This document shows positions 911 to 56,038 of a DNA stretch of 64,000 nucleotides, piece by piece. Each line of letters opens with the position of its first letter. Positions within the stretch are counted from its first letter, which is position 1. Made by a program: the position numbers and the translations under genes. The notes beneath the pieces are model-generated. The model worked only from the letters and a program-made list of their open reading frames with translations, was not told the DNA's origin and did not search any database. Source of the DNA: Patescibacteria group bacterium (GTDB lineage Bacteria; Patescibacteriota; Minisyncoccia; CAIUEV01; JAHKAQ01); contig JAYEHH010000032.1 in assembly GCA_034716235.1 (NCBI GenBank), forward strand, positions 370 to 64,369, read 5' to 3'.

Positions 911-1062
911 TTTTTTAGTTTTAGTTTTTAGTTATTATTACGTAATAAATTACGTAATAGATTTAATATATTTAAAACATTGATTGTTTGAATTGTAACA
1001 GAGAAATTAGAAAGTTAAAAGTTTTTAAAGTTTTTAAAGCAACAAGGGTTTCTTTTTTTAAT

Positions 1063-1355
1063 GGTCATTCCCGTCCTGCTTGTCACCCCCGCCCCGTATC
1101 AAGTACGGGATAAACTCCAGCGGGAATCCCGAGCAAATTTAGAAGAAACTATTTTGGCAAAGTTTTGTCTAGACGTACCGGGATTCCCGTTTTCCTGCCT
1201 ACCGGCAGGCAGGCACGGGAATGACAGGGAAAAAGGCTGGCTGGCTTGTCTCGCCGAAGGCGGATCACCCTTTGGGTGAGATAATTAGCAATGGACAATT
1301 GATAATGGACAGTGGACAATTGATAATGCCAGCCAGAGGCTGGTCACCCTTTGGG
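1063..1355. repeat. Composite dispersed repeat copy R1: ATTCCCG...CGGGAAT palindromic modules, a GGCTGGCTGG/CCAGCCAG module and ataattgacaatgg word repeats.
   Basis: Nucleotide-level matches to 41614-41843 (partly inverted), 46229-46515, 38531-38598, 27404-27430 and 56143-56350. Preceded by the tandem word gtttttaaag x2 (1021-1040). Confidence 0.75.
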
Positions 1356-1368
1356 TGAAAAATTTCAA

Positions 1369-1932
1369 TTATAATTCCCGCATCATTTTTTTAATTTCTC
1401 GATAATCCGGGATTTCTTGAGCCACTAATTTCCAGAATTTTGGAGAATGATTCAGCTCTTTTAAATGACAAAGTTCATGCACAACCAAATAATCTAAATA
1501 TTTTTGAGGTAAATAAACCACTCGCCAATTAAAATTTAAGTTTCCCATAGAAGAGCAACTCCCCCACCTGGAATGTTGATTCCTAATAGAAACTCGATGG
1601 TATTGAAAATGGTAAAATTTATTAAAATATTCTAGTTTTTTGAGGATTAATCTTCGAGCTCGGTTTTTGTTGTTTAAGTAATTGGTTCGGTTACCTTTTT
1701 GTAAAATTCCGGGAGGTTCCTCTTTGACTTGAGTAATTTTTCTTAGAACCCAATCAGCTTTATTTTTGATAAAATTCTCTAAATAACTTATACGAAACAG
1801 AAATGGTAGAGTAGCGATTAATTCGCCTTTTCTATTTATGGACAATCGCATATATTTTACACCTCGTTTGCGTTTTAAAAAATAAGGGATATTTGTTCCT
1901 TTAAGTTTTATCTGCCTTGCTACAATTTTCAT
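1369..1932 (-). CDS. YgjP-like metal-dependent hydrolase (DUF45 / WLM-type HExxH)
   Basis: C-terminal HELCHLKELNHSPKFW motif typical of DUF45; length 187 aa. Confidence 0.7.
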   Translation of the reverse strand: MKIVARQIKLKGTNIPYFLKRKRGVKYMRLSINRKGELIATLPFLFRISYLENFIKNKADWVLRKITQVKEEPPGILQKGNRTNYLNNKNRARRLILKKLEYFNKFYHFQYHRVSIRNQHSRWGSCSSMGNLNFNWRVVYLPQKYLDYLVVHELCHLKELNHSPKFWKLVAQEIPDYREIKKMMREL

Positions 1933-6546: not shown

Positions 6547-7326
6547 TTATATTGTAAAATTATTTTCTTCCATATCCATAATTTCCTTGGCTAAATTATT
6601 ATAAGCTTTAGCACCTTTAGAAAGTTTGGAAAAATTTAAAATAGTTTTTCCAAAGCTAGGTGCTTCAGAAAGCCTAACATTTCTAGGGACAACCGAGTTA
6701 AAAACTTTTCCGGGAAAATTATTTTGGACCTCCTTCACAACTTGACGAGCTAATTTATTCCTTTTGTCATACATGGTTAGTACCGCTCCCATTACTTTTA
6801 GATCAGACTTCAATCCTTTTTTGATAAGACTTATGGTCTCTAGTAACCTGCTTAATCCTTCTAAAGAATAATACTCGCATTGTACGGGGATTATTACTCC
6901 ATCAGAAGCCACCAAACCATTGATGGTAAGTAAATCAAGGCTAGGTGGACTATCAATTATGATATAATCATAATCATTGCGGACAGTCTTTAGTGCATCG
7001 TAAAGACGGTATTCTCGGTTAGAGACATTGGCTAGCTCTATTGAGGCTCCCGATAAATCCACCGAGGAAGGTATTACATCATAGCTGACCGATCCAGTGC
7101 CAATAATTGCCTTCATGGGCGAAAGGTTTCTTATAAGCACATCGTAAACCCCAGATTTTATCTGGTCATTACTAATTCCAACTCCACTGGTAGCATTGGC
7201 CTGTGGATCTAAATCTACTAATAACACTAACCTCCCTTTTTCGGCAAGGTATTGAGATAAATTGACAGCAGTAGTTGTTTTACCAACCCCACCCTTTTGG
7301 TTTACTAGAGAGATTATTTTACCCAT
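6547..7326 (-). CDS. parA: Chromosome partitioning ATPase ParA/Soj
   Basis: Deviant Walker A KGGVGKTTTAVNL; 259 aa. Confidence 0.9.
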   Translation of the reverse strand: MGKIISLVNQKGGVGKTTTAVNLSQYLAEKGRLVLLVDLDPQANATSGVGISNDQIKSGVYDVLIRNLSPMKAIIGTGSVSYDVIPSSVDLSGASIELANVSNREYRLYDALKTVRNDYDYIIIDSPPSLDLLTINGLVASDGVIIPVQCEYYSLEGLSRLLETISLIKKGLKSDLKVMGAVLTMYDKRNKLARQVVKEVQNNFPGKVFNSVVPRNVRLSEAPSFGKTILNFSKLSKGAKAYNNLAKEIMDMEENNFTI

Positions 7327-7439
7327 CTTATCTTTTGTATTTCAATGGCAATATTATCCGTAAAGTGAACTTATTTAAAGATAACATATTTTCATATAAC
7401 AAAAAAGCCTTGAAGATTAAATAAATTAACGGATTTAAT

Positions 7440-21290: not shown

Positions 21291-21632
21291 TTTTCAATTC
21301 TCTAAAGTAATATAATCTCCGTAAATTAGCTAAAAACAAATTAATTGCGGTAAACGATCTATTAGTAATGCTTGGCTGAACGTGTTACCACGCTTACACC
21401 TACATCCTATCAACCTCGTCATCTTCGAGGAGATCTAAGCCTAATCTTGGGTTGGGCTTCGCGCTTATATGCTTTCAGCGCTTATCCACATCCGACTATA
21501 GCTACCCAGCAATGCCCTTGGTAGGGACAACTGGTACACCAGAGGTCGATTCATCCCGGTCCTCTCGTACTAGGGATGAGATCCCTCAAGCTTTCTCGCG
21601 CCTATGGAAGATAGGGACCAACCTGTTTTACA

Positions 21633-21664
<32 letters not shown>

Positions 21665-21679
21665 TTGGCGAACAGCCAA

Positions 21680-21726
<47 letters not shown>

Positions 21727-22364
21727 AGTAGCGAACAGCCTCGTCTATATGAGCTATCGGAGGCTACCACTCTGTTATCCCCGGGGTAACTTTTATCTGC
21801 TGAGCTTCCGCGATCCTACGATCCACGGTCGGATCACTAAATCCCGCTTTCGCGACTGCGCGACCTATAAGTCTTGCAGTAAAGCCGGCATCTGCTTTTG
21901 CGCTATCAGTCCGATTTCCATCCGGACCTAGCCGACCTTTGTGAACGACTCCGTTACAATTTGGGAGTCGAGCGCCCCACTCAAACTACCCACCAGACAC
22001 TGTTCCCGAGCTGGTGTTTAGTTACCTCTGGTAAATTTCACTGTTTCACATTTAATCAAGAAATCCCCAAAACATAGCTAAACATCAGCTCAAGGTTAGA
22101 ACTACACGATTCACAGGGTGGTATTTCACTGATGACTCCATCTATCCCAAAGGATAAATCTCAAAGTCTCCCACCTATACTGAGCAATAAATTGTATAGA
22201 TCAATGTCAAGCTGTAGTAAAGCTCCACGGGGTCTTTCCGTCTTTCCATAGGCAAACGGCATCTTTACCGCTACTGCAATTTCACCGGGTCCTTCGTTGA
22301 GACAGTCTCCAAGTCGTTACCCCATTCGTGCAGGTCTGAACTTACCAGACAAGGAAATTCGCTC

Positions 22365-22722
22365 TGTTTTGTTAATCTTTATGTCACCATAAAGCACGGA
22401 CTATATCTTTCCGCTAAATTTAAGTCAAAAAATTTAGGCGGATTCAGCGTTTAGTCTCTGAGGATTCTAAAAATCTTTTTTAGTCTTTCCTGCTGATTAT
22501 CTGGCACCTCGGATCTTTTCCGAGAATTACTGATAACTTTTTTACTTGGCATAGCTTTATAAAAATCTATGGAATAACTATACCATAGTAGTCTCAGATT
22601 TTCCAGATTTTCCAGCATATAGCTGAATGTTTTAGGACATCTTAATAATTTAAGATAGGCAGCGTTAATAATATAATTGTTCCAGTCCTTTTGGAATCTA
22701 AATATTAAATTCCAAAACCTTA
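22365..22722 (-). other. ~357-nt insertion in 23S between AAGGU and AGCGAAAUUCC (E. coli ~1917 region): candidate ORF-less group I intron or intervening sequence
   Basis: Core flanks align with E. coli 23S; the inserted sequence has no rRNA homology and contains internal repeats (cagattttccagattttccag) and hairpins. Confidence 0.5.
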
Positions 22723-22914
22723 GAACAATTATAGTTATTGCTGACGTTCACCGGGGCTTCAGAGATTGGCGTTAACCGCTCTCGTTAACCTTCCGGCACT
22801 GGTCAGGGGTCAGCCCCTATACATCCCCTTACGGGTTAGCAGGGACCTATGTTTTTGATAAACAGTCGCCCGGAGTCTTTAGCTGTGGCCGACGAATGTA
22901 CTGAATGGTGAATC

Positions 22915-23213
22915 CGAACTAGATAATTATCTGGTTCGGATTGTATGTGGGTTATTAATATTTTATTATGCTTTCTAACAAAGCGTTGCTAGGGTGCATA
23001 AAACGGTGACAATCGTCCAAAGTAGAAAGCCTATTAAAGGCATCTCTGCTAGGCCAATTGCCGTGCTCATCATCTTCTTTGTTCTTCCTTTCATATTGAT
23101 CCTCCTCCTCTAATTTCAATTTAAAAAACATAATTTACCCACACTTACCTTTTTTATTTTTTCTCCTTTCCTAAATCCATTTAGATTTCTTGGATTTAGA
23201 TTTTAAAGTTCAA
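22915..23213 (-). other. ~300-nt expansion of 23S helix 63 closed by a 15-bp inverted repeat (gtactgaatggtgaa / ttcaccattcagtac)
   Basis: Flanks align to E. coli 23S ~1700-1750; perfect inverted repeat at 22900-22915 and 23213-23229. Confidence 0.6.
22975..23094 (-). CDS. 39-aa hydrophobic peptide ORF (MKGRTKKMMSTAIGLAEMPLIGFLLWTIVTVLCTLATLC) inside the 23S helix-63 insertion, in rRNA sense, with GGAGGAGGA SD
   Basis: Manual translation of the minus strand: GGAGGAGGAtcaatATG...TAG. Basic N-terminus plus a single transmembrane-like segment, as in type I toxins. Confidence 0.3.
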   Translation of the reverse strand: MKGRTKKMMSTAIGLAEMPLIGFLLWTIVTVLCTLATLC

Positions 23214-24453
23214 TTCACCATTCAGTACACTGTCGGCAGGCCTTATCCCGAAGTTACGGCCGCTATTTTGCCGAGTTCCTTAACGAAGGTTCTCCCGTTC
23301 ACCTTGGGCTACTCGCCCTACCCACCTGTGTTGGTTTAAGTACGGATTAAACCTAAATATTTTCACAAAGCTTTTCCAGGAAGTCTATTCGCTCGAATCT
23401 GTTCCACTTGCGTTTCACATTTTTCCGCACCTTTTAAAAAGATGAAGAAACGTCAAACCATTAAGACGCTCAAGTTAGCTGACTTCGCACTTTGCTACAA
23501 CTTAGATTTAAGTCAAGGAATATTAACCTTGTGCCCATCGACTACGCTTTTCAGCCTCGCCTTAGGACCGACTAACCCTGGGCTGATTATCATCGCCCAG
23601 GAAACCTCAGGTTTTTGGTGGAAAGGAATCTAACCTTTCTTGCGGTTACTCATACCAACATTCTCTCTTCCATTAGCTCCACTAAAACTCACATTTTAGC
23701 TTCACAGCGCATGGAATGTTCTCCTACCCCGCCATACTCTAAAAAGAATATGACAGCCATAGTTTCGGTACTATGTTTGAGCCCCATTATATCTTCGGCG
23801 CGGAACGACTAGACTAGTGAGCTGTTACGCACTCTTTAAAGGAATGGCTGCTTCTAAGCCAACCTTCTAGCTGTTTAAGAAGTTCTACATCCTTTTCCAC
23901 TTAACATAGATTAGGGACCTTAACTAATGGTCTGGGCTGTTTCCCTTTCGTAAATGAAGCTTAGCCCCCACTTACTGACTCGTTAGACTTGTATATTGGA
24001 ATTCGGAGTTTGGTTGAGTGCCCTAGACAAAAGTCATGGATACTCATTCAGTGCTCTACCTCCAATACCAACTATCTAACGGCTATACCTAGATATATTT
24101 CGGAGAAAACCAGCTATCGCCGAGTTCGATTAGCATTTCACCTCTAACCACAGCTCATCCCAGCGTGTTGAACGGCGCTTGGGTGCGGACCTCCACCGCT
24201 TTTTAAGGCGGCTTCATCCTGGCCATGGCTAGCTCACTCGGCTTCGGGTCTGACCCTAACGACAGGGGGCGCCACTTAAGACTCGCTTTCGCTGCGGCTC
24301 TTCCGCCTAGACGGATTAACCAAGCCGTTAAAATCAACTCGTTGGTTCGTTCTGCAAAAAGCACGCGGTCACCGGCTCAAAAAAAACTTGAGCGGGCTCC
24401 CACTCGTTGTAAGCACACGGTTTCAGAAACTATTTCACTTCCCTTTCGGGATA

Positions 24454-24495
<42 letters not shown>

Positions 24496-25401
24496 AAAGT
24501 GTATTTAGTCTTACCGGGTTAGTACCGGCAAATTCACCTGGAATTTCTCTAGTTCCAGGCTACTCAAGATAAAATAACTCAGAGTGATTAATTGTTTTCG
24601 CCTACAGGACTTTTACCTTCTAAGGTAAGCCTTTCCAGGCATTTTTGGCTAACAACTAATGCTTTTTACTCTGCCAATACTAAAAGTTGTAAAAGCACAA
24701 TAAAATTATACTTTTACAATTTCAGTTCGGACGCTATTGAACTTATTACCCTCAGTAAAAACTGAGTTTGGACTTTTCCCCGTTCGCTCGCCGCTACTTA
24801 GGGAATAACTATTGTTGTTTTTTCCTTCGGCTACTAAGATGTTTCAATTCGCCGAGTATGCTTTTTACTCCTATGTATTCAGAGTAAAATTCTATTCAAA
24901 AATGAATAGAGGGTTTCCCCATTCGGAAATTCCCGGATCAAAGCTTGCTTGACAGCTCCCCGAGACTTTTCGCAGCCTGCTACGCCCTTCATCGCCACTT
25001 TGTACCAAGGCATCCACCATATGCTCTTATAACCACAATTTATTAGTGTTTTTAGCTAATTCACAAAGATTATTTGTAAATTAATTGCAATCACTTAAAT
25101 ACCATTTTGCCTAATAATTGTTTTTAACCACAATCTCCAAACAACTATTATTAAAATAAATTGTTAAAGTCCATTATGTGGCCTAAAAGGTAGTTTTTAA
25201 AAATAAAAACCGCTTTTCAAGCCGCTAATTCTTTAAAATAAATTAGACCCAAAAACTAGCCAAGGAACAGCTCTTAATAAATTCTCAATAAAATAATACT
25301 ATAAAAATTATTATAGCAATAAATAAGTTAGTGTCAACTGAATGTAAACCAACCTCTAATCTCTAAATTAATAAATAGACAATTCAGAGCTTATAATTTC
25401 T

Positions 25402-25865: not shown

Positions 25866-27485
<1,620 letters not shown>

Positions 27486-27489
<4 letters not shown>

Positions 27490-30988: not shown

Positions 30989-31069
30989 ACTTTAAAATAA
31001 TTAAATACAAGCGGTAGTAGCGAGCTCGAAACTCGCTACTACTTAGGATTTTACTTAATTTGTTTTACC

Positions 31070-37987: not shown

Positions 37988-38341
37988 TTAAAACCTAGCT
38001 CCTTCGTCGATAGAAAACTTTTTCTTAATACTAATGGCTCCCCTTCTTTCAATGGTTTGACGCTTCTCTTTCTTTCTTCTGATTTGATCACTTAATCCGT
38101 CACGCGCTAAATCAAAAGCTGCCTTGATTGTTTTAGCCTTAGCGTCTCCAATGTAACGGGAGCCAGGGACTCTAAGCTGAATCTCTACTCGATAAATTCC
38201 TCTTTTATCTTTTTCAATCTCCATTTCAATACTTACCGTTTGATTTTTAAAATACTTTTGCAACTTTGCAATCCTTACTCGGATATAATGTTTAACTTTT
38301 TCCTTCACCTTCAATCCATTTAGATAGAATTTAACTTTCAT
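37988..38341 (-). CDS. hpf: Ribosome hibernation promoting factor (RaiA/HPF, short form)
   Basis: 117 aa; YfiA-family pattern (..IEMEIEKDKRGIYRVEIQLRVPGSRYIGDAKAKTIKAAFDLARDGL..). Confidence 0.7.
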   Translation of the reverse strand: MKVKFYLNGLKVKEKVKHYIRVRIAKLQKYFKNQTVSIEMEIEKDKRGIYRVEIQLRVPGSRYIGDAKAKTIKAAFDLARDGLSDQIRRKKEKRQTIERRGAISIKKKFSIDEGARF

Positions 38342-38530
38342 AGTTTTTTTGATTTAAACTTAAAATTAAAATTGAATTCCATTTTTATACTATTACAATA
38401 AAAATTTATTTACAAATAAAATAACAACTTTCATTCCCGCTTTTTTAAATTAGGGTTACCTTCTTTGTAAAAATCCTCTAAACTTATTAGAAAGATTGTC
38501 GAATATGACTTAAGAGACCCGCCTAAACTA

Positions 38531-38598
38531 GCAGGGATTCTGAGCAAATTTAAAAGACTCGAACATAATTGGTCATTCCCGTCTCCGCGGGAATGACA
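38531..38598. repeat. Repeat copy R3 in the divergent hpf/uvrA promoter region: gcagggattctgagcaaatttaaaag module plus palindrome ggtcattcccgtctccgcgggaatgacat
   Basis: ATTCCC-N8-GGGAAT palindrome; the module matches 1121-1145. Confidence 0.7.
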
Positions 38599-38768
38599 TA
38601 TCTTAAGGTTTTTTCTAGATATACCAAGATTCCTGTCGAAATTTATCTTATACTTGATGTGGGGAAGGAAAAAACATGCTGTAATAAAACTTTTTTAAAT
38701 TTCCAGAAAAATAAGCTCTACCACTAATTTTTGAAAAATGATAACTTTTATGTTATAATAACCAAGTT

Positions 38769-41582
38769 ATGAAAAAAATTATTATTCGCGGAGCACGAGA
38801 ACATAATCTCAAGAATGTCAACCTCAAATTACCTCGGGGCAAGTTTATTGTTTTTACAGGAGTTTCTGGTTCAGGCAAATCAACTCTAGCCTTTGATACT
38901 ATTTTTGCTGAAGGTCAAAGACGCTATCTTAAAAGCCTTTCTAGTTATGCCCGTCAATTTCTAAGCCAGGTAGGAAAGCCAGACATGGATTTAATAGAGG
39001 GTCTTTCTCCAACTATATCTATAAATCAAAAGACTGTTGGGCGAAATCCTCGTTCTACCGTAGGAACCGTCACGGAAATATACGATTATTTAAGGCTTCT
39101 CTTTGCTAAAATAGGCACCCCCTTTTGCCCTCGTTGTGGAACAGAAATTAAAAAAAATTCGTTAGAAGAAATAATTAAAGAGATCTCAAAAGAATTTAGA
39201 GAGCGTGCTCAAATTCAAATCTATGCCCCAGTAAATTGTAAAACAAAAGAAGAATGTCAAACCGTTTTGGGTAATCTTTATGAACAAGGTTTCGCTAAAG
39301 TCATTATCAATGGAGAATTAGTAAAGCTCTCTACTTATCGTTTTCTGCAATTCAAAAATCCTGCTCCTTACAAAATGAAAGTTTTAATAGATGAATTAAA
39401 ACTTAATTCTAAAAATTCGGGGAAATTGGCCGAAAGTCTTGAGCGCGCCTTAAGAACAGGGAAAGAAAAAGTTGTAATCACCCAAGGTAAAAAAGTTAAA
39501 AGCTTTGGCCGAAATATGAAGTGTCCCAATTGTGGTTACCGTTTGAAAAAAATTGAGCTAAATTCTTTTTCTTTCAATAGCCCTAACGGAGCTTGTCCCG
39601 TTTGTAACGGTCTTGGAAAACAAATGCAGGTATCTCTTAAGCTAATAATGCCTGACCTTTCTAAAACCATAGGTCAAGGGGGAATTTTTCCTTATAGTTA
39701 TCGTCGTAATAAATATTTCATTCAATTTGTTAATTCAGCGGCTAGAGTTCTAGACATTTCTTTGAATACTCCCTTAGGAAAAATTCCCCGATCCCAACTT
39801 AATAAATTACTTTTGGGGAAAGGAAAACCAATAGTTATAAAAATTAAAGAGGCTCATCACCCTACTAAGGCTCAAGCCGTTACTTTCCCTGGAATAATTA
39901 AGTATCTAGAAAATTATTATCACAACACTGAATCTAAACAAATTAAAAAAGAGATTGAGAAATATATGATTAAGAGAACTTGTCCTGCTTGCCATGGAGC
40001 TCGTCTTAAGCCTGACAGTCTTCTTATAAAAATTAAAGGAAAAAATATAAGCGAAATTGCTAATCGCTCTATTAAAGATTTAATTAAGTTTTTCCGCACG
40101 CTCAAGTTTACTCAGGGGCAAGAGCTGGTTGCTAAACGAATCAAACAAGAAATAGTTAGCCGTCTGACTTTTTTAAATAATGTAGGATTACCGTATTTAA
40201 CTTTAGATCGTTCTTCGGCTACTTTGGCAGGAGGTGAATTTCAAAGAATTCGTTTAGCCAGTCAAGTTGGAACAGAGTTGACAGAAGTAATCTATATTTT
40301 AGACGAACCTTCCATCGGCCTACACGCTAGAGATAACAAAAAATTATTGGCTATTCTAAAAAAATTAAGAGATGCCGGCAATACAGTCATTGTTATTGAG
40401 CATGACAAGGAAACCATGCTTAACGCTGATTGGCTGACCGACATTGGACCTGAAGCTGGAGAAAACGGTGGTAGAATTATAGAAAATGGTCCGTTGAAAA
40501 AAGTTTTACGGAGTAAAAAATCGCTAACGGTTCAATATTTAAAGGGAGAGATTAAAGTTGAGATTCCTCGCAAAAGAAGAACTCCTTCTAAAAAGAAGCT
40601 GATTATTTCGGGAGCTCAAGAGCATAATTTAAAAAATATACAAGTAGAAATACCTTTGGAGGTTATGACTTGTATTACGGGAGTTTCCGGATCGGGGAAG
40701 TCAACTCTAGTTAATAATATTATTCACCGTAAACTGGCTAATTATTTTTATCATTCCATTGCCCAACCGGGAAAACATAGGAAAATAGAAGGATTGCAAT
40801 TTATTGATAAAGTTGTAGGGATAGACCAGTCACCTATTGGACGCACTCCCCGCTCTAATCCGGCAACTTATACCAAGGTGCTTGCTCCCATCAGACAACT
40901 ATTTGCCTCCACTCCGGCTGCTCAAATTAAAGGATTTACTCCCGGTCAGTTTAGCTTCAATATGACAGGTGGTCGTTGTGATAATTGCCAAGGGGCAGGA
41001 TTTCTAAAAGTAGAAATGCAATTTTTGCCAGATGTTTATGTACCTTGTGATGTTTGTAAGGGGAAACGTTTTAAAAAAGAAATTTTAAAGGTAAACTATC
41101 AGGGAAAGAATATAGCTGATGTTTTAGCAATGACGGTCAATGAGGCTGCTCGATTTTTTTATCAGACACCTCAAGTTTACAACATATTAGCGGTAATTCA
41201 AGAAGTGGGTCTGGGTTACATTAAACTAGGACAATCGGCCACCACTCTTTCTGGGGGAGAAGCTCAGCGAATTAAGTTAGCTTCTGAACTGGCCAAGAAA
41301 CCAACCAATAAAACTTTCTACATTCTGGATGAGCCGACAACCGGCCTTCATTTTGAAGATATTAAAAAATTGCTAACCGTTATCCAAAAATTGGTTGATC
41401 AAAAAAATACCGTTTTAATGATTGAGCATAATTTAGATGTTATAAAATCAGCCGATTGGATTATTGATCTTGGGCCAGAAGGTGGCGAACAAGGTGGTAA
41501 AATTGTTGCTCAGGGAGCACCAGAAAAAATTATTAAAAACGCTAAAAGCTATACTGGAAAATATCTTAAGGGATATCTTTAA
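38769..41582 (+). CDS. uvrA: Excinuclease ABC subunit A
   Basis: Two ABC ATPase modules (GVSGSGKST twice, LSGGE signatures), zinc-finger cysteines; 937 aa. Confidence 0.95.
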
Positions 41583-41613: not shown

Positions 41614-41843
41614 AGTTCATAAAGTGACTAGCTACTAAGTAGCTAGTCATTCCCGTGCCTGTCTGCCGTGAGGTAGAAAGGCAGGAATCCCGGTACGTCT
41701 AGACAATTCCTTGCCAAGTTAGTTTCTTCTAAATTTGCTTGGGACCCCCGCTGGAGTTTATCCCGTACTTGATACGGGGCGGGAATGACAGGGGAAAAAG
41801 CTGGTTGGAGTTTTACCCAGTAGATGTGGGACGGGAATGACCA
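41614..41843. repeat. Repeat copy R4 (mosaic, partly inverted relative to R1) immediately 3' of uvrA
   Basis: Begins with gttcataaagt and the palindrome gactagctacttagtagctagtc. Modules cccgccccgtatcaagtacgggataaactccagcggg and cgtctagacgtaccgggattcc are in inverse orientation to R1; the gggaatgacaggggaaaaagctgg module is direct. Confidence 0.75.
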
Positions 41844-41894
41844 TAAACTAGTTACAATCAATGCCTTTTAAAAACAAAAAATAATTAATTAACC

Positions 41895-42305: not shown

Positions 42306-45047
42306 ATGCAATCAACAAAACCTAAAATAAAACCAATAAGTTGTTCTCAGTGCAAAGGAGCTGGTTGGATTGGAGAAATGAACAATACTTGCCCTGCTTG
42401 CAAGGGAATTGGCTATGCAGAAGAAGTGCGTGGAGTCCAACTTTATTGGGGAAGAAAGATGCGAGGCATGCCCCCTTCCCTTAGAAAATCTCTGGCTAAT
42501 TTTTCTTGGATTGTTAAAACAGTGACTTCTAGTCTTTGTGCCCTATTTATTTTCATTGGATTGATAAATTTGATTGATAATCTCAAAGGACATCCCAATT
42601 TGACCTTTGACTTTAATTTAATTTTTGACATTTTCTTCGCCGGCTATGCCACGGCCCCTCTCTGGCTAGGGATTGTATTATTAATAATTCTTTATTTCCA
42701 CAAAGCTATTTATCAAAAACCAGAAATTATCTCTTTTGATAATCCATACTATTCTTTCGTTTTAACCGAAAATTTAAATGAGATAGCCAAACCTAGTACC
42801 TCCACAATAGATATCTCCAAGTCAGCAAGTACAGCCACAATAAAGGTAATCAATACTGCTTTAGATTCAGCTCTTAAACACAAACAAAATCCTCACTTGA
42901 TTCATCTACTTTTTTCCTTGATGCAGAATAAAGAGATAGTAGAGTTATTTTTTAAACTAGAGATACCACCGAAAGCTTTTTTAGAAGATGTCGCTAAAGT
43001 GTTGGGAAAAATAGAACCACTAAATGCCTCTGCAGCTTTAAATGGTAACTTTAAAAAATACTTGCTAAAAACTTTCTGGAGCGCCCTGACCGCTGAAAGC
43101 TCTTTTATAAAACCGGCTCACCTCTTACTGGCCATTATGGAATCTAGAGATTTAAAGCAAGTACTCAACAAATATGCTGTTAAGGCAGATGACTTCCAAA
43201 ATATTTTACTTTGGATGAAATATAAGAACATAAGATCGACCAACTTCTTGAGCAGGGATTCTTTTCAAAAGCCTCCTCACCATATTATGAATAGAAGTTG
43301 GAGTGCGACAGTCACTAAGACATTAGATCAATTCAGTACCGACATAACCGATTATGCCCGAGTAGGAATGTTGCTTCCACTTGTTAATAGAAAGCGAGAA
43401 ATAAGAATGATAACTCGGGTTCTTCAGCGAAGTGCTAAAAACAATGCCTTAATTATTGGCGAGGAAGGAAGCGGACGAGATGCTATTGTTAGAGGAATAG
43501 CTCGTAAAATAATCAAAAATGAAGTTCCTTCTTCTTTATTTGATAAAAGAATTGTTAAATTAAATTTGGGAGCTTTAGGAACTGGCTCTGATGGTGAACT
43601 CTTGAAAAGAAGGATTGAGGTCATAATGCAGGAAGTGGTCCGAACTCAAAATGTAATTATTTATATTCCCAATATTCACGAATTGGCCAAGATTCAAAAT
43701 TCTGCCTCCTTAGATATAATTAGTTTTCTAACTCCTCTTTTTTCTAAAAGAGTTATCCAAATTATTGGATCTACAACCCCTCAAGCCTATCGAGAAATTG
43801 TTGAGCCTCGGGGAGGATTCTCTCAGACTTTTGATATTATAAAAGTAAAAGAACTATCACCGGAACATTCCTTGAAAGTTCTTTCCATTCAAGTTCCTCT
43901 ACTAGAAAGAGAAAACAATGTTTTAATTTCTTATCGGGCTTGCCAAGAAGCTATTCAACAATCCAACCAATTCATTGTTAATCGCCTACTACCTCAAAAA
44001 GCTCTGAATGTTTTAACGGAAGCTATTGTGCGAGCCAAAGATGTGAAGGGAAAGAATTTAGTGACCGAAGCAGAAATTCAAGAAGTATTTTCTGAAAAGA
44101 CGGGCATCCCCATTACAAAAATTGGACAAGGAGAAGCTGAAGAATTATTGAAACTAGAAACAAAAATTAGAGCCAAGGTGGTTGGACAAGAGCTGGCCGT
44201 AAAAAATGTAGCGGACGCAATCCGAAGAATGAGGGTGCGCATTGGCGAAAAAGAAAGACCGATAGCTGTTTTTATGTTTCTGGGCCCCACAGGAGTTGGC
44301 AAGACTGAATTAGCTAAAACTTTAGCGGAAATATACTTTAAATCTCGTAAGAATATGATTCGTATTGATATGAGTGAATTATCCAGCCCTTATGATGTAG
44401 AACGAATGATTGGCGGTCCTAATAGCAATAGGGCTGGATTATTAACTGGCAAGGTGCGTCGCAACCCTTTCTCTCTGATTTTGTTAGATGAATTTGAGAA
44501 AGCCGATCGTGCTATCTGGGATATCTTCCTGCAAATTTTTGATGACGGCCGGGTAACAGACGGGAAAGGAAGGGTAGTAAATTTCACCAACACAATTATT
44601 ATTGCTACTTCCAATGTGGGCTCAAGAATAATTTTGGAAAAACTTCAAGGAGGCCAAAGTAATAAAATAATTAAAGCATTAGTTAAAACAGAACTCTTGA
44701 AAATATTCCGCCCTGAATTTTTGAACCGCTTTGATGACATTATAACTTTCAATGCTCTTTCTCATGAAAATATTAAACAAATAGCAAAATTAGAGCTCAA
44801 GTCTCTTAATAAGAGATTAGAGGAAGAACAAGGAATTACCATAAAATTAACAGACGAAGCTCTGGATTATTTAGCCAAGATAGGTTATAGTCCTGAATTC
44901 GGAGCTCGCTTTCTTAAAAGAACCATCCGAGAAAAGATTGAAGATGTTCTGGTGATTGGTATTTTGAAGAAACAGCATAACCGAGGAGATATTGTTACTA
45001 TAACGAGAGAAATGCTAGAGAAACCAGGAAGAGTAGAAGGTTCATAA
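42306..45047 (+). CDS. Membrane-anchored ClpC/ClpA-family AAA+ ATPase: N-terminal zinc ribbon (CSQC...CPAC) plus transmembrane segments plus Clp_N repeats; ATPase-dead D1, intact D2
   Basis: D1 Walker A is GEEGSGRDA instead of GEPGVGKTA and Walker B is YIPNIH instead of FIDEIH. D2 has GPTGVGKTELAKTLA and LILLDEFEKA. No long M-domain. Confidence 0.75.
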   Translation: MQSTKPKIKPISCSQCKGAGWIGEMNNTCPACKGIGYAEEVRGVQLYWGRKMRGMPPSLRKSLANFSWIVKTVTSSLCALFIFIGLINLIDNLKGHPNLTFDFNLIFDIFFAGYATAPLWLGIVLLIILYFHKAIYQKPEIISFDNPYYSFVLTENLNEIAKPSTSTIDISKSASTATIKVINTALDSALKHKQNPHLIHLLFSLMQNKEIVELFFKLEIPPKAFLEDVAKVLGKIEPLNASAALNGNFKKYLLKTFWSALTAESSFIKPAHLLLAIMESRDLKQVLNKYAVKADDFQNILLWMKYKNIRSTNFLSRDSFQKPPHHIMNRSWSATVTKTLDQFSTDITDYARVGMLLPLVNRKREIRMITRVLQRSAKNNALIIGEEGSGRDAIVRGIARKIIKNEVPSSLFDKRIVKLNLGALGTGSDGELLKRRIEVIMQEVVRTQNVIIYIPNIHELAKIQNSASLDIISFLTPLFSKRVIQIIGSTTPQAYREIVEPRGGFSQTFDIIKVKELSPEHSLKVLSIQVPLLERENNVLISYRACQEAIQQSNQFIVNRLLPQKALNVLTEAIVRAKDVKGKNLVTEAEIQEVFSEKTGIPITKIGQGEAEELLKLETKIRAKVVGQELAVKNVADAIRRMRVRIGEKERPIAVFMFLGPTGVGKTELAKTLAEIYFKSRKNMIRIDMSELSSPYDVERMIGGPNSNRAGLLTGKVRRNPFSLILLDEFEKADRAIWDIFLQIFDDGRVTDGKGRVVNFTNTIIIATSNVGSRIILEKLQGGQSNKIIKALVKTELLKIFRPEFLNRFDDIITFNALSHENIKQIAKLELKSLNKRLEEEQGITIKLTDEALDYLAKIGYSPEFGARFLKRTIREKIEDVLVIGILKKQHNRGDIVTITREMLEKPGRVEGS

Positions 45048-45150
45048 AGTTCATAAAGTTTGTAAAGTTCGTAAAGTTTTCAGGGTTAAGAATAGCGAGA
45101 TAAAGACTTGATAACTTTATAAACTTTACAGACTTTTCACTTTCTAACTT
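45039..45150. repeat. Repeat copy R5: 9-mer word array gttcataaa/gtttgtaaa/gttcgtaaa x4, then the inverted partner ctttataaactttacag and a ctttctaactttataacc module
   Basis: The same words recur at 41611, 46231, 46394-46428, 56143 and 1021-1040. Confidence 0.7.
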
Positions 45151-45161
45151 TATAACCTCTC

Positions 45162-46238
45162 GTGAATATCTTATCCATCGAAACATCTTGTGATGAAACT
45201 GCTTTCGCTATTGGAGCCGTGCAAAACGGTCATTTTAAGCTTTTAGCAAACACCGTCTCATCTCAAGTCAAAGTTCATCAAAAATTCGGTGGTGTGGTTC
45301 CTAATTTATCTGCCAGAGAACACTTAAAAAATTTCAAGCCACTGCTAGATAAAACATTGACTCAAGCTGGTATTCCCCTCAAAGAAATTGATTGTTTTAG
45401 TGTTGCTCCCGGTCCGGGACTTATTCCGGCTCTTTTAGTAGGAACATCTATCGCTAAAACTTTAGCCTTTTATCATCAGAAACCCTTAGTTCCCATTCAT
45501 CATTTAGAAGGACACACTTACGCTACTTGGCTAAAGAAAAATGGAGAGTTGAGAGATGACATTGCTTTTCCCGCTTTGGTTTTAATAGTTTCCGGAGGAC
45601 ATACCCAACTAATGCTGATGCAAGACCATTTGCATTACGAAATACTCGGCAGAACTTTGGACGATGCAGTTGGAGAAGCTTTTGACAAAGTGGCTAGAAT
45701 TTTAGAATTAGGTTACCCCGGAGGTCCTTTGATTGAAAAAATAGCTCAAAAAGGTAATCCAGAAAAGTTTCAACTTCCTAGACCGATGATCAATTCTGAT
45801 AATTTAGATTTTAGTTTCTCGGGATTAAAAACTGCCGTCCTTTATGTCGTGAAAGAATATCTTGAGAAAAAGGAAATGGTCCCGACCGCTGATATGGCCG
45901 CTTCTTTTGAGCAAGCCGTTGTTGATACCTTAATAGCCAAAACGCAAAAAGCGGTTAATACTTACAACCCTCAGTCATTAATTTTGGCAGGAGGAGTAGC
46001 TGCTAATACAAAAATAAGGGAAGCTTTTATTGAAATTGCTCAGAAACGAAACAAAGCAAAAGAATACTCAAATTACTATCCCCTACAAGCTTACGTCCCA
46101 GAATTAAAATTCTGCGGTGACAACGCTGCCATGCAATTACCGGCAGTATTTTTTAGATTAGAAAAGTATGGGAAGAAGAAGTATCGGGAGGGGTGGAGAG
46201 ATGTGGAGGCTGAGGCTAATTGGGGGCTCAGTTCATAA
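45162..46238 (+). CDS. tsaD: tRNA N6-threonylcarbamoyladenosine synthase TsaD (Kae1/YgjD)
   Basis: MNILSIETSCDETAFAI N-terminus and conserved His pairs (HHLEGH); 358 aa. Confidence 0.9.
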   Translation: MNILSIETSCDETAFAIGAVQNGHFKLLANTVSSQVKVHQKFGGVVPNLSAREHLKNFKPLLDKTLTQAGIPLKEIDCFSVAPGPGLIPALLVGTSIAKTLAFYHQKPLVPIHHLEGHTYATWLKKNGELRDDIAFPALVLIVSGGHTQLMLMQDHLHYEILGRTLDDAVGEAFDKVARILELGYPGGPLIEKIAQKGNPEKFQLPRPMINSDNLDFSFSGLKTAVLYVVKEYLEKKEMVPTADMAASFEQAVVDTLIAKTQKAVNTYNPQSLILAGGVAANTKIREAFIEIAQKRNKAKEYSNYYPLQAYVPELKFCGDNAAMQLPAVFFRLEKYGKKKYREGWRDVEAEANWGLSS

Positions 46239-46515
46239 AGTTGAAAAGTTTAGATAATTGATAATTGACAATGGATAATTGATAATTAATGAATAATGAA
46301 TATCTTAAATAATTTTTCACCCAGAGGGTGATCCGCCTTCGGCGAGACAAGCCAGCCAGCCTCGCCGAGTCTAGGCGGGCCTCTGGCTGGCAATTAAGGA
46401 ATACTTTATAAACTTTACGAACCTTCTAACTTAACCATGAAGGCTTTATTAAATGGGTGGGAAGTGGTTTAATAAAAAGAGATAGAGAATAAGAATTATA
46501 TAATTAATTACTTAT
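46229..46515. repeat. Repeat copy R6 at the left boundary of the defense island
   Basis: Contains the gttcataaagt word, the ataattgacaatggataattgataat module, the inverted GGCTGGCTGG/tcgccgaaggcgg module (matches 1245-1285), ctttataaactttacgaaccttctaactt, then ttattaaatgggtgggaagtggtttaat...agaattatataattaattacttat. Confidence 0.75.
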
Positions 46516-46525
46516 ATTTAAAATT

Positions 46526-48343
46526 ATGCCAAATTATTTCGTCAATCAAAGAAATATTAGTGCGTTACTTCAAAACATTAAGGACGAAGATATTGTAATC
46601 CCAGAAATTCAGAGACCTTTTGTTTGGGAGAGTAAAAAAGTTCGTAATCTTATGGACTCATTGTATCAGGAATTTCCAATAGGTTATATTATTACATGGA
46701 AAAATCCAAATATAAGACTAAAAAATGGAAGAATGAGCGAGGGAAAACAAGTTATAATAGATGGACAACAAAGAATTACCGCTTTAATGGCTGCGATCTT
46801 GGGACGAGAAATTATAGACAAAGAGTATCAAAAAAAGAGGATTCGGATTTCCTTTAATCCATTGAAAGAAAAGTTTGAAACATTAACTCCTGTTATTGAA
46901 AAAAATAGTGAATGGATAAGCGATATTTCAGAATTTTTTAAAACTAGAAATAATATTTTTAATTTTACTGCTAATTTTTGTAAAAAAAATAATTTTACCG
47001 AAAAACAAAAAATCAAGACTCAGCAAAGTCTAACAAAATTACTAAACATGGAGGATAAGTTTATTGGAATTATTGAGCTTGATGCAAATTTAGATATTGA
47101 TGATGTAACGGAAATATTTGTTAGAATTAATGATGCTGGGACTCCCCTTTCACAAGCAGATTTTGCAATGAGTAAAATTGCCTCATACGAACCAACATCA
47201 GACCATTTGTTTGGAGTGAATTTAAGAAAGTCTATTGATTATTTTGCTCATCTATCTCAAACACCACATTTTCTTGAAGATATTGGAAGAAACGATAAAG
47301 AGTTTAGCCGAACAGAATATTTGCTAAAAATGAAATGGGCCGGGAAGGAATTGGATAATATATATAATCCAAACTATAAGGATATTTTAAGAGTAAGTTT
47401 CATTAAGGAATTTAATAGAGGGAAAATTAGCGATCTTGTGAAGCTTTTATCTGGACAAAATTTTAAAACAAGAAATTATGATCAAAAAATACAAGAGAAA
47501 TCATTCTTGGCTTTAAAAAATGGAGTCCTTGACTTTATAAATGAAAATCATTTTAAGAAATTCCTTATTATTTTACAATCAGCTGGAATTATTGATTCAA
47601 AACTTATTAATTCACAGAGCGTTCTAAATTTTGCCTATATTGTCTATTTAAAACTTAGAAAAGATGGAATGGCAAATAATTTAATTGGGAAATATACAAA
47701 AAAATGGCTTGTTCTTTCAATTTTGACTGAAAGATATTCAGCCTCACCAGAATCTACGATGGATAAGGATATTAAAGATATTAATAAATATGGAATTAAA
47801 AAAGTTATTGCAAAGATTGAAGAGGCGGACATGTCATCAACTTATTGGAATATTGGACTTGTACAAAATTTAAACAGGGCGATAATTTCAAGCCCATTTT
47901 TAAGCCTCTTTTTTATAGCACAGATATGCTCTAAGGATAAAGCTTTATTCTCCGAATCGGTTTTAATCGATCAACTCGTTAGCATAAAAGGAGACGTCCA
48001 TCATATTTTCCCCAAAAATTATCTTCAAAAAGCAGGGTTTGGAATAAGTAAATATAATCAAATTGCAAATTTTGTTTATTTACAACAAGAAGTAAATATA
48101 ACAATAGGAGATAAACCACCAGGACAATATTTTAGCCGAGCATTGAATCAATGTGATAATAAAACTTTGGATAGTGGAAGTATTGGAGAAATTACAGACA
48201 AGAAAAAATTGATAAAAAATTTAGAAATAAATTCTATCCCAACTGATATTTTTGAAATGGATATTACTAATTATGATGAATTTTTAGAAAAAAGACGGAA
48301 ATTAATGGCAAAGAAAATTGAAAAGTTTTATAAAAGTTTATAG
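46526..48343 (+). CDS. GmrSD-like type IV (modification-dependent) restriction endonuclease: N-terminal DUF262 (ParB-like NTPase) plus C-terminal DUF1524 (His-Me/HNH-like nuclease)
   Basis: PEIQRPFVW...IIDGQQRITAL (DGQQR hallmark of DUF262); C-terminal DVHHIFPKNY...N...N (DUF1524 signature); 605 aa. Confidence 0.75.
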   Translation: MPNYFVNQRNISALLQNIKDEDIVIPEIQRPFVWESKKVRNLMDSLYQEFPIGYIITWKNPNIRLKNGRMSEGKQVIIDGQQRITALMAAILGREIIDKEYQKKRIRISFNPLKEKFETLTPVIEKNSEWISDISEFFKTRNNIFNFTANFCKKNNFTEKQKIKTQQSLTKLLNMEDKFIGIIELDANLDIDDVTEIFVRINDAGTPLSQADFAMSKIASYEPTSDHLFGVNLRKSIDYFAHLSQTPHFLEDIGRNDKEFSRTEYLLKMKWAGKELDNIYNPNYKDILRVSFIKEFNRGKISDLVKLLSGQNFKTRNYDQKIQEKSFLALKNGVLDFINENHFKKFLIILQSAGIIDSKLINSQSVLNFAYIVYLKLRKDGMANNLIGKYTKKWLVLSILTERYSASPESTMDKDIKDINKYGIKKVIAKIEEADMSSTYWNIGLVQNLNRAIISSPFLSLFFIAQICSKDKALFSESVLIDQLVSIKGDVHHIFPKNYLQKAGFGISKYNQIANFVYLQQEVNITIGDKPPGQYFSRALNQCDNKTLDSGSIGEITDKKKLIKNLEINSIPTDIFEMDITNYDEFLEKRRKLMAKKIEKFYKSL

Positions 48344-48375
48344 TAATAATTTTCTAATCAGAGAGCAGAAAGCTC

Positions 48376-48777
48376 TTACTCCTTATCAGGCAATCTATCA
48401 TCTTTTTTTCTTTGATAATAAGTATTCTTATTTAAACATCTGTTTATAATATTTTCCATGTGCCAATAAGTGTAATTGCCATATCTAAAATAAATCTGTT
48501 TTGTTTTGTAAAAATAATCCTCGTATCCTGACTGGTCAATGTAATTAGCAAGCTCTAAGTATAATTTGTTATCAACTTTTTCTTGGACAATATATTCATG
48601 GGGCCATGTTTTAGCATAAGTTTTTGCAGGCGTCCAATTAGAATTTTTAATAAATAATTTTAAATTATTGGGGAGTAGTACTCTATCAAACATCGCCTTT
48701 ATTTTTTTACTATGAAGAAATATTAAAACCTTTTTGATTGTAGCTATAGTATTGTTGATTACTTTAGTTTCATCCAT
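48376..48777 (-). CDS. Hypothetical aromatic-rich small protein, convergent with the GmrSD-like gene
   Basis: 133-aa ORF, no recognised motif. Confidence 0.35.
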   Translation of the reverse strand: MDETKVINNTIATIKKVLIFLHSKKIKAMFDRVLLPNNLKLFIKNSNWTPAKTYAKTWPHEYIVQEKVDNKLYLELANYIDQSGYEDYFYKTKQIYFRYGNYTYWHMENIINRCLNKNTYYQRKKDDRLPDKE

Positions 48778-48930
48778 GCTGAATCTAAAGTGGATTCCAT
48801 AAGTTGCATATTCTTTTAATCAAAAATACATTATTTATTTCAATAAGTATAGTAAGTTATAATTTAAAATAGCTGAACAGAATTCTTAATTTATAATCTA
48901 GAATTTGTAATCTAAAATCTCTCAAGACTT

Positions 48931-48970
48931 GATTAAATGGGTAGAAAGTGGCTTAATGGGGAGGAGAATT
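48931..48970. repeat. Repeat copy R7 (gattaaatgggtagaaagtggcttaatggggagg module)
   Basis: Near-identical to 55962-55997 and similar to 46447-46476. Confidence 0.7.
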
Positions 48971-49095
48971 GCATGGTTAATTGGTTATCAATGAAAATGC
49001 TATAAAGTTTTTATTAAGATTATAATTAAGAGAATAATTCAGGTAGGGTTTTTTGCAAAAATTAATGTGCTTTTTAATTATTTTATATAAATTCA

Positions 49096-52014: not shown

Positions 52015-52019
52015 TTTTT

Positions 52020-53057: not shown

Positions 53058-53131
53058 AAATCCCTATGTTTATAAATTTTAAAAACAATTTAGAATAGAA
53101 GATAATCATCTATTTATATTTATATAACCCA

Positions 53132-54910: not shown

Positions 54911-54950
54911 AAATAATTAGGGTTATACTCCCCTGCTGCATTCTTTCTTA

Positions 54951-54976
54951 AAAGAATTACGTAATTAATTACTTAC
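54951..54976. repeat. Repeat copy R8 (aagaattacgtaattaattacttacc module)
   Basis: Identical 26-mer at 56013-56038; variant at 46491-46515. Confidence 0.7.
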
Positions 54977-55031
54977 CAGTAACCCCACTTCCAAAAACAA
55001 TTCTAAAATAACATAGATTAATAGAATCTGA

Positions 55032-55922: not shown

Positions 55923-55961
55923 AGAAATATATCAGTACAATTATCCCAAACATACTATTTG

Positions 55962-56038
55962 GCTTGATTAAATGGGTAGAAAGTGGCTTAATGGGGAGGG
56001 AAATAGAGAAAAAGAATTACGTAATTAATTACTTACCA
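55962..56038. repeat. Repeat copy R9 (both R7 and R8 modules) at the right edge of the island
   Basis: gattaaatgggtagaaagtggcttaatggggagg...aagaattacgtaattaattacttacc. Confidence 0.75.

Follow-up and report, generated by a model that had tools for sequence, protein, structure and literature searches.

This locus raises the question of what the palindromic repeats are that recur between the genes of a 64,000-nt stretch of a Patescibacteria metagenome-assembled genome (MAG; GenBank GCA_034716235.1, contig JAYEHH010000032.1, positions 370 to 64,369; hereafter the window), and whether they belong to one family. The original prediction, made from the letters of the window, described shuffled modules of a single dRS3-like family at ten or more sites. 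The repeats are real, intergenic and far beyond chance, but the ten sites mix at least four unrelated sequence classes and do not form one family. The first class comprises six GC-rich hairpin units of defined orientation: a 5'-GTCAT head opens the unit, a 7-8-bp GC stem and its return strand enclose a loop, and an ATCC tail closes it. Judged from their sequence and from covariance-model matches, these units are members of the known dRS3/NTS/Ssn-related motif (SRM) class, first described in Neisseria. The second consists of other GC hairpin modules common to related metagenomic contigs, the third of AT-rich arrays with a 7-9-nt period that flank the GC modules, and the fourth of two motifs resident upstream of genes, one promoter-like and the other a TTACGTAAT box, which stand outside the repeat family. 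The elements occur in four states: a canonical singlet, two heads-out doublets of about 146 nt that resemble REPINs and miniature inverted-repeat transposable elements (MITEs), decayed copies, and mosaic clusters with AT arrays that resemble NIMEs and BIMEs. We give a probability of roughly 0.65 to the reading as a whole, namely that SRM-class hairpins form doublets, were recently inserted, have become mosaic and would be acted upon by an Ssn nuclease.

The sites are referred to as S1 (the 1063-1358 region), S2 (between atpG and atpD), S3 (the strand-switch spacer between hpf and uvrA), S5 (between clpB and tsaD), S6 (after tsaD) and S9 (before an aminoacyl-tRNA synthetase gene), and the genes flanking the repeats, uvrA, a ClpB-like gene, tsaD, hpf and atpG/atpD, are those originally named. 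Sensitive self-comparison of the window by blastn aligned 1081-1225 with 41646-41790 in inverted orientation (145 nt, 88% identity, E 5e-44), and gave two further inverted matches, 27354-27393 with 56306-56345 (40 nt, 97.5%) and 1234-1279 with 46317-46362 (46 nt, 98%), the latter bearing out an inverted module predicted at 1245 and 46326. The identical 24-mers placed at 1189 and 56213 were likewise found, at 1190-1213 and 56212-56235. The word GTCATTCCCG occurs eight times exactly, and nine times with up to one mismatch versus 1.6 expected. The palindrome ATTCCCG-N8-CGGGAAT, after which the predicted family was named, has zero matches as written; the actual pattern is ATTCCC-N8-GGGAAT, with two matches at 27408 and 38575, whose exact 8-nt spacers are as quoted, and none in 100 shuffles. 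All eight strong GC hairpins are intergenic (0.8 expected, intergenic sequence being about 9% of the window), and the AT word arrays are genuine tandem arrays with a 7-9-nt period in Tandem Repeats Finder, as had been claimed. Collapsed or chimeric repeats could be suspected from the observation that Logan contigs of the same organism (an independent assembly, run SRR26901930) tend to end or diverge inside the repeat clusters, which is attributable to the multi-copy nature of the sequence. Yet over S2, S5 and the left-hand portion of S6 Logan contigs are 100% identical to the window, the same elements are present in unrelated public assemblies, and the blastn E-values and the motif counts lie far from what shuffles give. 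Chance similarity and assembly artefact, the two outcomes that would have undone the original prediction, are thus excluded.

A literature search with the repeat sequence led to the paper that defines the SRM family (Chenal et al. 2025, PMC11893778). In that work, the NTS of Neisseria, CGTCATTCCCGCGMAVGCGGGAATCYRG, which contains dRS3 and was searched with one mismatch allowed, was generalised to the Ssn-related motifs with the pattern HGTCWYN(0-2)YYVSBRHN(0-5)WNVSBRGN(0-2)RNCYNB. NTS/SRM hairpins are bound and cut as single-stranded DNA (ssDNA) by the small GIY-YIG nuclease SsnA, the GTC 5' of the palindrome being critical for cutting and the C directly 3' of it for binding (PMC11893778). The near-canonical hairpin GGTCATTCCCGCGAAGGCGGGAATCCCG at 27404-27431 (+), between atpG and atpD, equals the NTS 28-mer with two mismatches (positions 1 and 27; the authors' cut-off is 1), 0 such matches being expected even at three mismatches, and includes an exact dRS3 match at 27408-27427; it is also found at the end of Logan contig L015. 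This copy misses the published pattern only at its first base (G, where H is required), and the pattern minus the first and last two bases has one match in the window versus 0.06 in shuffles. To avoid circularity, a covariance model (R1) was built from 51 distinct strict SRMs harvested from non-window loci only, in which 98% of stem positions are paired, compensatory changes are seen in six of eight pairs, and the GTCAT head and ATCC tail are fixed. Searched with filters off, the window yielded matches at 27404-27431 (+; 36.7 bits, E 7e-9), 1179-1226 (-; 28.7 bits, E 2.4e-6), 38574-38598 (-; 18.3 bits, E 0.0045), 1081-1131 (+; 14.2 bits, E 0.09), 41645-41692 (+; 14.1 bits, E 0.1) and 41740-41790 (-; 10.0 bits, E 1.9). 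All six units fall at originally predicted sites, and both doublets that they form are heads-out. The GTC 5' and the C 3' of the palindrome are both kept in five of the six, the palindrome at 38572-38597 having a G after the stem. Strict matches to the published pattern are carried by contigs L150, L151, L157 and L164, which share modules with the window.

Each of the two doublets of about 146 nt, A (1081-1226) and D (41645-41790), consists of two SRM units that face heads-out and are separated by an AT-rich spacer of 47 nt; additional hairpins are nested within their loops. Unit 1 of doublet A (1081-1131, +) is an SRM with a 27-nt loop insert containing the CCCGTATCAAGTACGGG hairpin (1093-1109), and 40-50 nt of it are 94-100% identical to Thermodesulfobacteriota/Syntrophaceae loci (L024, L035, L050, L067 and L077). 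The spacer that follows (1132-1178, 32% GC) is kept in other window copies and in metagenomic relatives, 76 nt matching L157/L151 at 89% and 74 nt matching L164 at 86%. Unit 2 (1179-1226, -) is an SRM with a 23-nt loop insert containing the hairpin CCTGCCT-ACCGGC-AGGCAGG (1194-1213); its 24-mer is repeated identically at 56212, and 21 of 22 nt match the Syntrophaceae locus L024. An extra solitary head, GGTCATTCCCGTCCTGC (1063-1079, +), pairs with 1209-1225 and closes a 164-nt hairpin at 1063-1226, whose computed fold has a free energy (dG) of -78.1 and a z-score of -8.6. Doublet D, lying downstream of uvrA, is in a 145-nt inverted repeat with A: its long-loop SRM at 41645-41692 (+) is homologous to unit 2 of A, its spacer is placed at 41693-41739 by the family alignment, and its unit at 41740-41790 (-), with the CCCGTA hairpin, is homologous to unit 1 and holds a 37-mer identical to 1088-1124. 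The region 41780-41843 holds a head-plus-flank module, CGGGAATGACAGGGGAAAAAGCTGGTTGG, which is found again at 1216-1244 (29 nt at 90%), and, next to doublet D, a solitary head (41831-41843), the same extra head as at 1063-1079. The module (CGGGAATGACAGGGRAAAAAGSCTGG) has unit 2 as its neighbour in copy A but unit 1 in copy D, and this opposite-side placement is taken to indicate exchange at the conserved heads. Such swapping of flanks between copies, along with the covariance-model units and the G+C wave described below, supports the dRS3-like, NIME/MITE-like mosaic that the original prediction had proposed.

Doublet-related sequence is present at three other sites, two of them holding decayed copies. 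In the divergent hpf/uvrA spacer, a decayed doublet at 38505-38597 has kept part of its tail, GCAGGGATTCTGAGCAAATTT, along with a spacer and a symmetric palindrome, GTCATTCCCG-TCTCCG-CGGGAATGAC (38572-38597), which contains the dRS3 match at 38575. At S2, repeat-family analysis and alignment identified at 27432-27489 a homologue of the doublet spacer, AACAAATTGAGAAAG, followed by the palindrome GTAGAGACGGGTTTCAAACCCATCTCTAC, which stands in the position of a second unit. What is left at S9 (56160-56270) is a decayed doublet fragment made up of GTCTAGGCGTCCCGGGATTTCC, a remnant of spacer and tail, together with the hairpin TTCCTGCCTACCGGCAGGCAGGAA and the small hairpin GTCATCC-CCT-GGATGA; it includes a perfect 8-bp hairpin. 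Two perfect palindromes with 11-bp stems were also noted outside the SRM family, TGACTAGCTACTAAGTAGCTAGTCA (41625-41649), which overlaps the head of doublet D, and GTAGTAGCGAGCTCGAAACTCGCTACTAC (31014-31042), between two atp genes. Both doublets are spanned by 72-codon open reading frames (ORFs) beginning MVIPVLLVTPAPYQVRDKLQRES (1061-1279, +, and 41643-41861, -), which are almost certainly spurious; a protein-collection search that was meant to count copies returned no homologues of the 72-aa ORF spanning doublet A, and a literature search with peptide translations of such repeats (IPAKAGIQ and others) returned no papers.

The relationship of these modules to sequences in other phyla was assessed by scans of public genomes and metagenomes. 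The long-loop unit GTCAYYCCCGC-CCCGTATCAAGTACGGG-ATAAACTCCA-GCGGGARTCC is matched in Thermodesulfobacteriota/Syntrophaceae MAGs over 39-42 nt at 100% and over 50 nt at 94-96%, and one of these contigs also carries the CCTGCCTACCGRCAGGCAGG hairpin. A metagenome scan for GGGAATCCCGARCAAATT, which joins the unit tail to the spacer, gave 32 matches, of which L150, L151/L157 and L164 are clear family members and the others chance. These low-GC contigs carry a simple 103-nt doublet with the same heads, tails and spacer and with loops of 4-6 nt; they share the twin-hairpin module, and L164 also has the GTTCATAAAGTTTGTAAAGTT words. Since both window copies carry both loop inserts, the elaborated form must itself have been duplicated in this genome. 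SRM hairpins are present in further Patescibacteria MAGs too. Heads-out doublets also occur in Daviesbacteria, Liptonbacteria and Thermodesulfobacteriota/Syntrophaceae MAGs, with a partial one in a Saccharimonadales MAG, and seven of 13 adjacent SRM pairs in independent loci are heads-out. Scans of viral contigs for the doublet spacer and the twin-hairpin module returned chance matches in coding sequence only, and a phage carrier is therefore not supported.

Comparison with orthologous spacers demonstrated that the elements are recent. The host is a Patescibacteria MAG related to Moranbacteria, whose UvrA (38769-41582) defines the relatives used here, L180 (88% identical) and L181 and L182 (76%); among named relatives, Candidatus Moranbacteria come closest, at about 63% identity. 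After uvrA, the spacer is 312 nt long in the window, 200 nt in L180, where it holds a different heads-out doublet, and 147 and 146 nt in L181 and L182, where it holds no GC hairpin. The hpf-uvrA spacer measures 427 nt in the window versus 164 and 135 nt in L181 and L182, L180 having different genes upstream, and the clpB-tsaD spacer, which in the window is 114 nt of nothing but 9-mer arrays, is 76 nt in L182 and devoid of arrays. The doublet of L180 is of the GTCTTTGCGAG...CGAAGCAATCC type, also present in L157 and L164, and an R1 search of 25 kb of L180, L181 and L182 found no SRM. Because the orthologous spacers are empty or hold a different doublet, the window elements are regarded as recent insertions; the presence/absence polymorphism at orthologous sites by which MITEs of any type are recognised is thus observed. 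Upstream of uvrA, L180 has three tandem paralogous small ORFs, each followed by a terminator-like AGCGGGAATGAAAGAACAACTTTCGKCCCGCTTTTTT (690-735, 1165-1215 and 1760-1810), and the window keeps the 3' half of one such AGCGGGAATGAAAGAACAACTTTCGKCCCGCTTTTTT terminator at 38425-38447, with hpf there on the opposite strand. A head with one mismatch at 38430 was consequently rejected as a family member, being a remnant of this terminator.

A link between such hairpins and an Ssn nuclease was found in other genomes. A viral contig retrieved with the hairpin pattern encodes a 96-aa GIY-YIG protein (PF01541, E 2.7e-14) that is flanked by strict SRMs in heads-out orientation, and all seven ssn loci on viral contigs have R1 matches less than 100 nt from the gene, as heads-out flanking units or heads-out doublets. 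A profile search gave at least 7,998 relatives of the viral GIY-YIG protein, one of them from Candidatus Liptonbacteria, a member of the candidate phyla radiation (CPR). This ssn gene (L179 7001-7291, GCA_016212635.1) lies between uvrA and uvrB, flanked by a plus-strand SRM (6961-6988) and by one with a long loop on the minus strand (7301-7341); the contig bears two more heads-out doublets. The window doublets have the geometry of such an SRM-ssn-SRM unit minus the gene. It was also observed that doublet D directly follows uvrA, the gene next to which the Liptonbacteria ssn is located, which may be a coincidence or a preferred neighbourhood. A tblastn search with Ssn-like sequences matched only L007 among the loci searched, and no small GIY-YIG ORF was found beside CCCGTA hairpins.

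The GC-rich units are embedded in a G+C wave, in which GC modules of 57-68% GC alternate with AT-rich spacers of 17-36% (34.7% for the whole window). At S1 the successive segments have 20/61/32/62/63/32/62% GC, and S6 and S9 are alike, the arrays being short with 2-4 units. The second-class modules at 1234-1358 surround an AT array (1280-1328) and comprise GGCTGGCTGG...GCCGAAGGCGG followed by TCACCCTTTGGGTGA, and CCAGCCAGAGGCTGG followed by TCACCCTTTGGGTGA; the class also includes GCCAGCCAGAGGCTGG with TCACCCTTTGGGTGA. These modules match L157 over 32 nt at 100% and L164 over 37 nt at 97%, and their fold is again stable (dG -51.9, z -4.5). The GC core of S6 (46311-46391, 64% GC) is an inverted copy of the 1234-1279 module joined to a GCCAGCCAG...CTGGCTGGC hairpin, and is preceded by AT arrays at 46231-46302 (a GTTCATAAAGTT word and GATAATT repeated five times), with inverted partner words at 46402-46430. 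At S2 the AT arrays (27299-27393) have periods of 18 and 7 nt, with an inverted 40-nt copy at 56306-56345, and at S9 an array of about ten TTGAAAA words (56270-56345) lies directly upstream of the class-I aminoacyl-tRNA synthetase gene and holds a TTGAAA-16-TATAAT promoter-like site. The site S5 (45036-45161) had been counted as part of the family; the AT arrays there were verified, but AT arrays are all it contains, folding into a long hairpin at 45040-45156 with 4.3 copies of GTTCATAAA and five of inverted AACTTTATA (dG -38.4, z -6.8), the first repeat of which supplies the clpB stop codon. In the computed folds, the arrays of GTTCATAAA, GATAATT and TTGAAAA pair with one another across GC cores. 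The 13-mer CAATTAAGGAATA marks junctions between AT arrays and GC modules at three places: the end of the S2 arrays (27381-27393), S6 (46391-46403) and S9 (56306-56318, -). Its extension, TTAAGGAATATCTTT, is identical to the last uvrA codons in L180 (4688-4702; E 0.008), which hints at a piece of gene end carried along when the composite was copied, or may be a coincidence.

The fourth class accounts for three of the predicted sites, 48928-48969, 54950-54978 and 55961-56035, which turned out to hold a promoter-like box and the TTACGTAAT box instead of family members. The 37-42-nt box CTTGATTAAATGGGTAGAAAGTGGCTTAATGGGGAGG, at 46444-46485, 48928-48969 and 55963-56004, precedes three genes of the plus strand (GmrSD, McrB-like and aminoacyl-tRNA synthetase) by 80-370 nt and could be read as TTGATT-17-CTTAAT, a promoter-like arrangement. 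The TTACGTAAT box lies at 931-966, 54950 and 56010 and, in degenerate form, at 46489; it is also conserved after tsaD in L182, a relative that yielded no SRMs. Its palindromic form, AATTACGTAATTAATTAC(TTACC), stands upstream of genes in the window (931-966, 54950-54978, 56010-56038 and 46489-46517), in L182 (10100-10131) and in L001 (1394-1421), and is a candidate operator for a DNA-binding protein. Both boxes look like resident regulatory or promoter motifs.

The clusters S6 and S9 bracket a defence island (46526-55922, 29-32% GC) between tsaD and the class-I aminoacyl-tRNA synthetase gene, together with a 75-nt direct repeat (46442-46514 and 55961-56035, 81%). The island encodes GmrSD, a 133-aa ORF, a McrB-like AAA protein with an EVE domain, McrC, a PD-(D/E)XK nuclease and two further ORFs. 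Logan contig L001 is 100% identical to the window in their overlap up to the AT array after tsaD; beyond that array it carries a MutH-like gene and one other gene, which on inspection by eye we take to encode a methyltransferase. This alternative cassette in an otherwise identical contig lends backing to the recombination or protein-binding role that had been envisaged for the repeats. Its resemblance to the minimal mobile elements of Neisseria, seen in one short contig, is only suggestive.

Combining these data, it is proposed that the hairpins would extrude in ssDNA, either on the lagging-strand template or in incoming transforming DNA, where an Ssn-family GIY-YIG nuclease, its gene lying elsewhere in the genome, might bind them and nick a single strand. 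The doublets may represent gene-less miniatures of the SRM-ssn-SRM unit that spread by a hairpin-directed process, and the conserved heads may serve as crossover points that shuffle modules and help to exchange neighbouring cassettes, the defence island that follows tsaD and precedes the tRNA synthetase gene being one example. Stable RNA hairpins at the ends of genes would in that case probably be a side effect and not the reason for the elements. Judged by analogy with other genomes, the action of an Ssn nuclease in this organism is plausible. A more far-reaching proposal, on balance doubtful, is that the doublets are non-autonomous mobile elements of an Ssn-based system that move within genomes and between phyla, for instance between Patescibacteria episymbionts and Thermodesulfobacteriota/Syntrophaceae in shared anoxic habitats, and that become larger when a hairpin unit inserts into the single-stranded loop of a second one.

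Several observations weigh against the SRM-doublet reading. The strict published SRM pattern has 0 matches in the window, the loops of units other than the 27404 copy far exceed its N(0-5), and R1 scores half of the six units no better than E 0.1-2, a weakness that is ascribed to their 23-30-nt loop inserts. A scan of 185,579 species genomes (596 Gb) for the 17-mer CCCGTATCAAGTACGGG gave at least 120 matches where about 70 are expected by chance, and this count alone is not significant; the matches are meaningful because their flanks are conserved almost everywhere, in few recurrent contexts, and among those listed a TGGAT-...-ATGAC context, that of a bona fide SRM, was found in Sulfuricurvum, Elusimicrobia, Daviesbacteria and Saccharimonadales. 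No ssn or GIY-YIG gene was detected in the window, either by Pfam scans of ORFs of at least 80 aa judged to be genes and one 79-aa ORF, or by tblastn of the whole window with GIY-YIG sequences. Finally, no target-site duplication was seen at 1063/1226, 1081/1226 or 41645/41790, and spread by Ssn is a conjecture, Ssn being characterised as a nuclease that modulates transformation and not as a transposase (PMC11893778).

Could the elements act primarily at the RNA level instead, as terminators, 3'-end stabilisers, processing sites or small RNAs? Their folds are very stable (z -4 to -9), several lie at gene 3' ends and one inside the atp operon, and the AT arrays supply stop codons and promoter-like hexamers. 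We consider such a primary role unlikely: a hairpin followed by a T-run exists only at 38597-38572 (-) and 46331-46317 (-), terminator-like sites are not above shuffles, and the units are found both along and against the direction of transcription, as well as in a divergent promoter region, while the orthologous spacers of relatives do without them and the same modules turn up in unrelated contexts in other phyla. In addition, Rfam recognised only the 23S rRNA and its group I intron (gathering threshold, E <= 0.05 window-wide) and nothing credible in 900-1400 at E <= 10, which also counts against a dedicated RNA.

Two DNA-level alternatives share much of the anatomy. Ordinary cut-and-paste MITEs, whose GTCATTCCCG ends would be terminal inverted repeats for the DDE transposase of a full-length insertion sequence elsewhere, would fit the inverted ends, small size, strong folding, intergenic location and the presence/absence differences between relatives. 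This explanation seems improbable in view of the missing target-site duplication at either full copy, the lack of a transposase in the window, and the conservation across phyla of modules and not of whole elements; moreover, the ends are complete hairpin units that also stand alone, at 27404 and in many phyla with co-varying stems, which fits recognition of a hairpin rather than of a duplex terminal repeat. The conserved 5' head, the inverted doublets and the mosaic clusters are equally the anatomy of REPs, REPINs and BIMEs, an analogy also drawn in the Ssn paper (PMC11893778), so that the doublets could be REPINs kept by a RAYT, a Y1 transposase of the IS200/IS605 type. Among the window ORFs no Y1_Tnp/RAYT match was found, and the gene between such hairpins elsewhere is that of a GIY-YIG nuclease. 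REP heads are GTAG or GGAG and not the GTCAT seen here, and a RAYT-based system is less probable still than cut-and-paste MITEs. The SRM-doublet reading, with Ssn as its putative agent, accordingly remains the one we prefer.

These results place the NTS/SRM-Ssn ssDNA-hairpin system, documented in Neisseria in 2025, in a Patescibacteria genome, and bear on the open question of how SRMs multiply. The added details are that units can be long-looped and nested, that doublets share a conserved spacer, that close Patescibacteria differ in their insertions and that modules are nearly identical in distant phyla. As the published pattern misses long-loop and nested units, surveys that rely on it are suggested to undercount SRMs. 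For the annotation of such MAGs, the elements explain why spacers are long, why contigs break and why spurious 72-aa ORFs appear. If the proposed mobility is real, near-identical modules could serve as tracers for DNA passing between CPR bacteria and the organisms that host or surround them, and NIME-like clusters would be crossover points for defence-cassette swaps in CPR genomes.

The remainder of the window consists of ordinary housekeeping genes and a 23S rRNA gene, and Pfam scans of its ORFs revealed no transposase, RAYT or GIY-YIG protein. The 23S rRNA gene (21341-25040) spans 3,700 nt versus 2,925 nt for the model and contains a group I intron (22377-22717) and further insertions; since no 16S, 5S or tRNA gene was found within the 64 kb, the rRNA genes appear to be unlinked. 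A parA/parB pair is located at 5.6-7.3 kb. Around 38300-40000 the GC skew changes sign and gene orientation flips from minus to plus at the hpf/uvrA spacer, which suggests a replication origin or terminus; an origin at S3 was rejected, DnaA-box matches being at chance level with no cluster there.

How the elements compare with known systems is informative. Classical MITEs, such as Correia elements in Neisseria and Rickettsia palindromic elements, are similar in length (about 100-160 nt), inverted ends, strong fold, intergenic location or overlap with gene ends, and spurious ORFs, whereas the window elements lack a target-site duplication and have autonomous hairpin units as ends; we know of no sequence relation between them and Correia or Rickettsia palindromic elements. 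The REP/REPIN/BIME-RAYT systems of Enterobacteria and Pseudomonas share the conserved 5' head hairpin, replication as inverted doublets, mosaic clusters and hairpins on either side of a single-copy partner gene, but differ in the head sequence and in their partner, which for the present hairpins is elsewhere a GIY-YIG protein and not a Y1 transposase, and is absent from the window. In NIME arrays, dRS3-type inverted repeats flank 50-150-bp repeat segments in a G+C wave (Bentley et al. 2007, PMC1797815); dRS3-type inverted repeats with AT-richer segments between them and a G+C wave are found here too, as are shuffled modules and, as with minimal mobile elements, clusters beside strain-variable restriction or defence cassettes. 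In contrast to NIMEs, the clusters have 2-4 units and no long arrays, the spacers are short-period AT tandem arrays and not RS-element families, and the host is a Patescibacterium. With respect to the Neisseria NTS/SRM itself, most window units have 23-30-nt loop inserts holding further hairpins where the published loop is 0-5 nt, the tail is CCCG and not CYRG, and the doublets have a conserved 47-nt spacer with no ssn gene in 64 kb. The density of the repeats is not a difference: it had been thought unusual for a small genome, but an enrichment of SRMs in symbionts with small genomes has been reported (PMC11893778). The likeness covers the core sequence, 27404-27431 differing at two of 28 NTS positions, the GTC of the head and the C of the tail, on which cutting and binding depend, the hairpin with co-varying stems, the intergenic clustering and the small-genome symbiotic hosts; in other genomes, one CPR MAG among them, an ssn gene is flanked heads-out by these hairpins.

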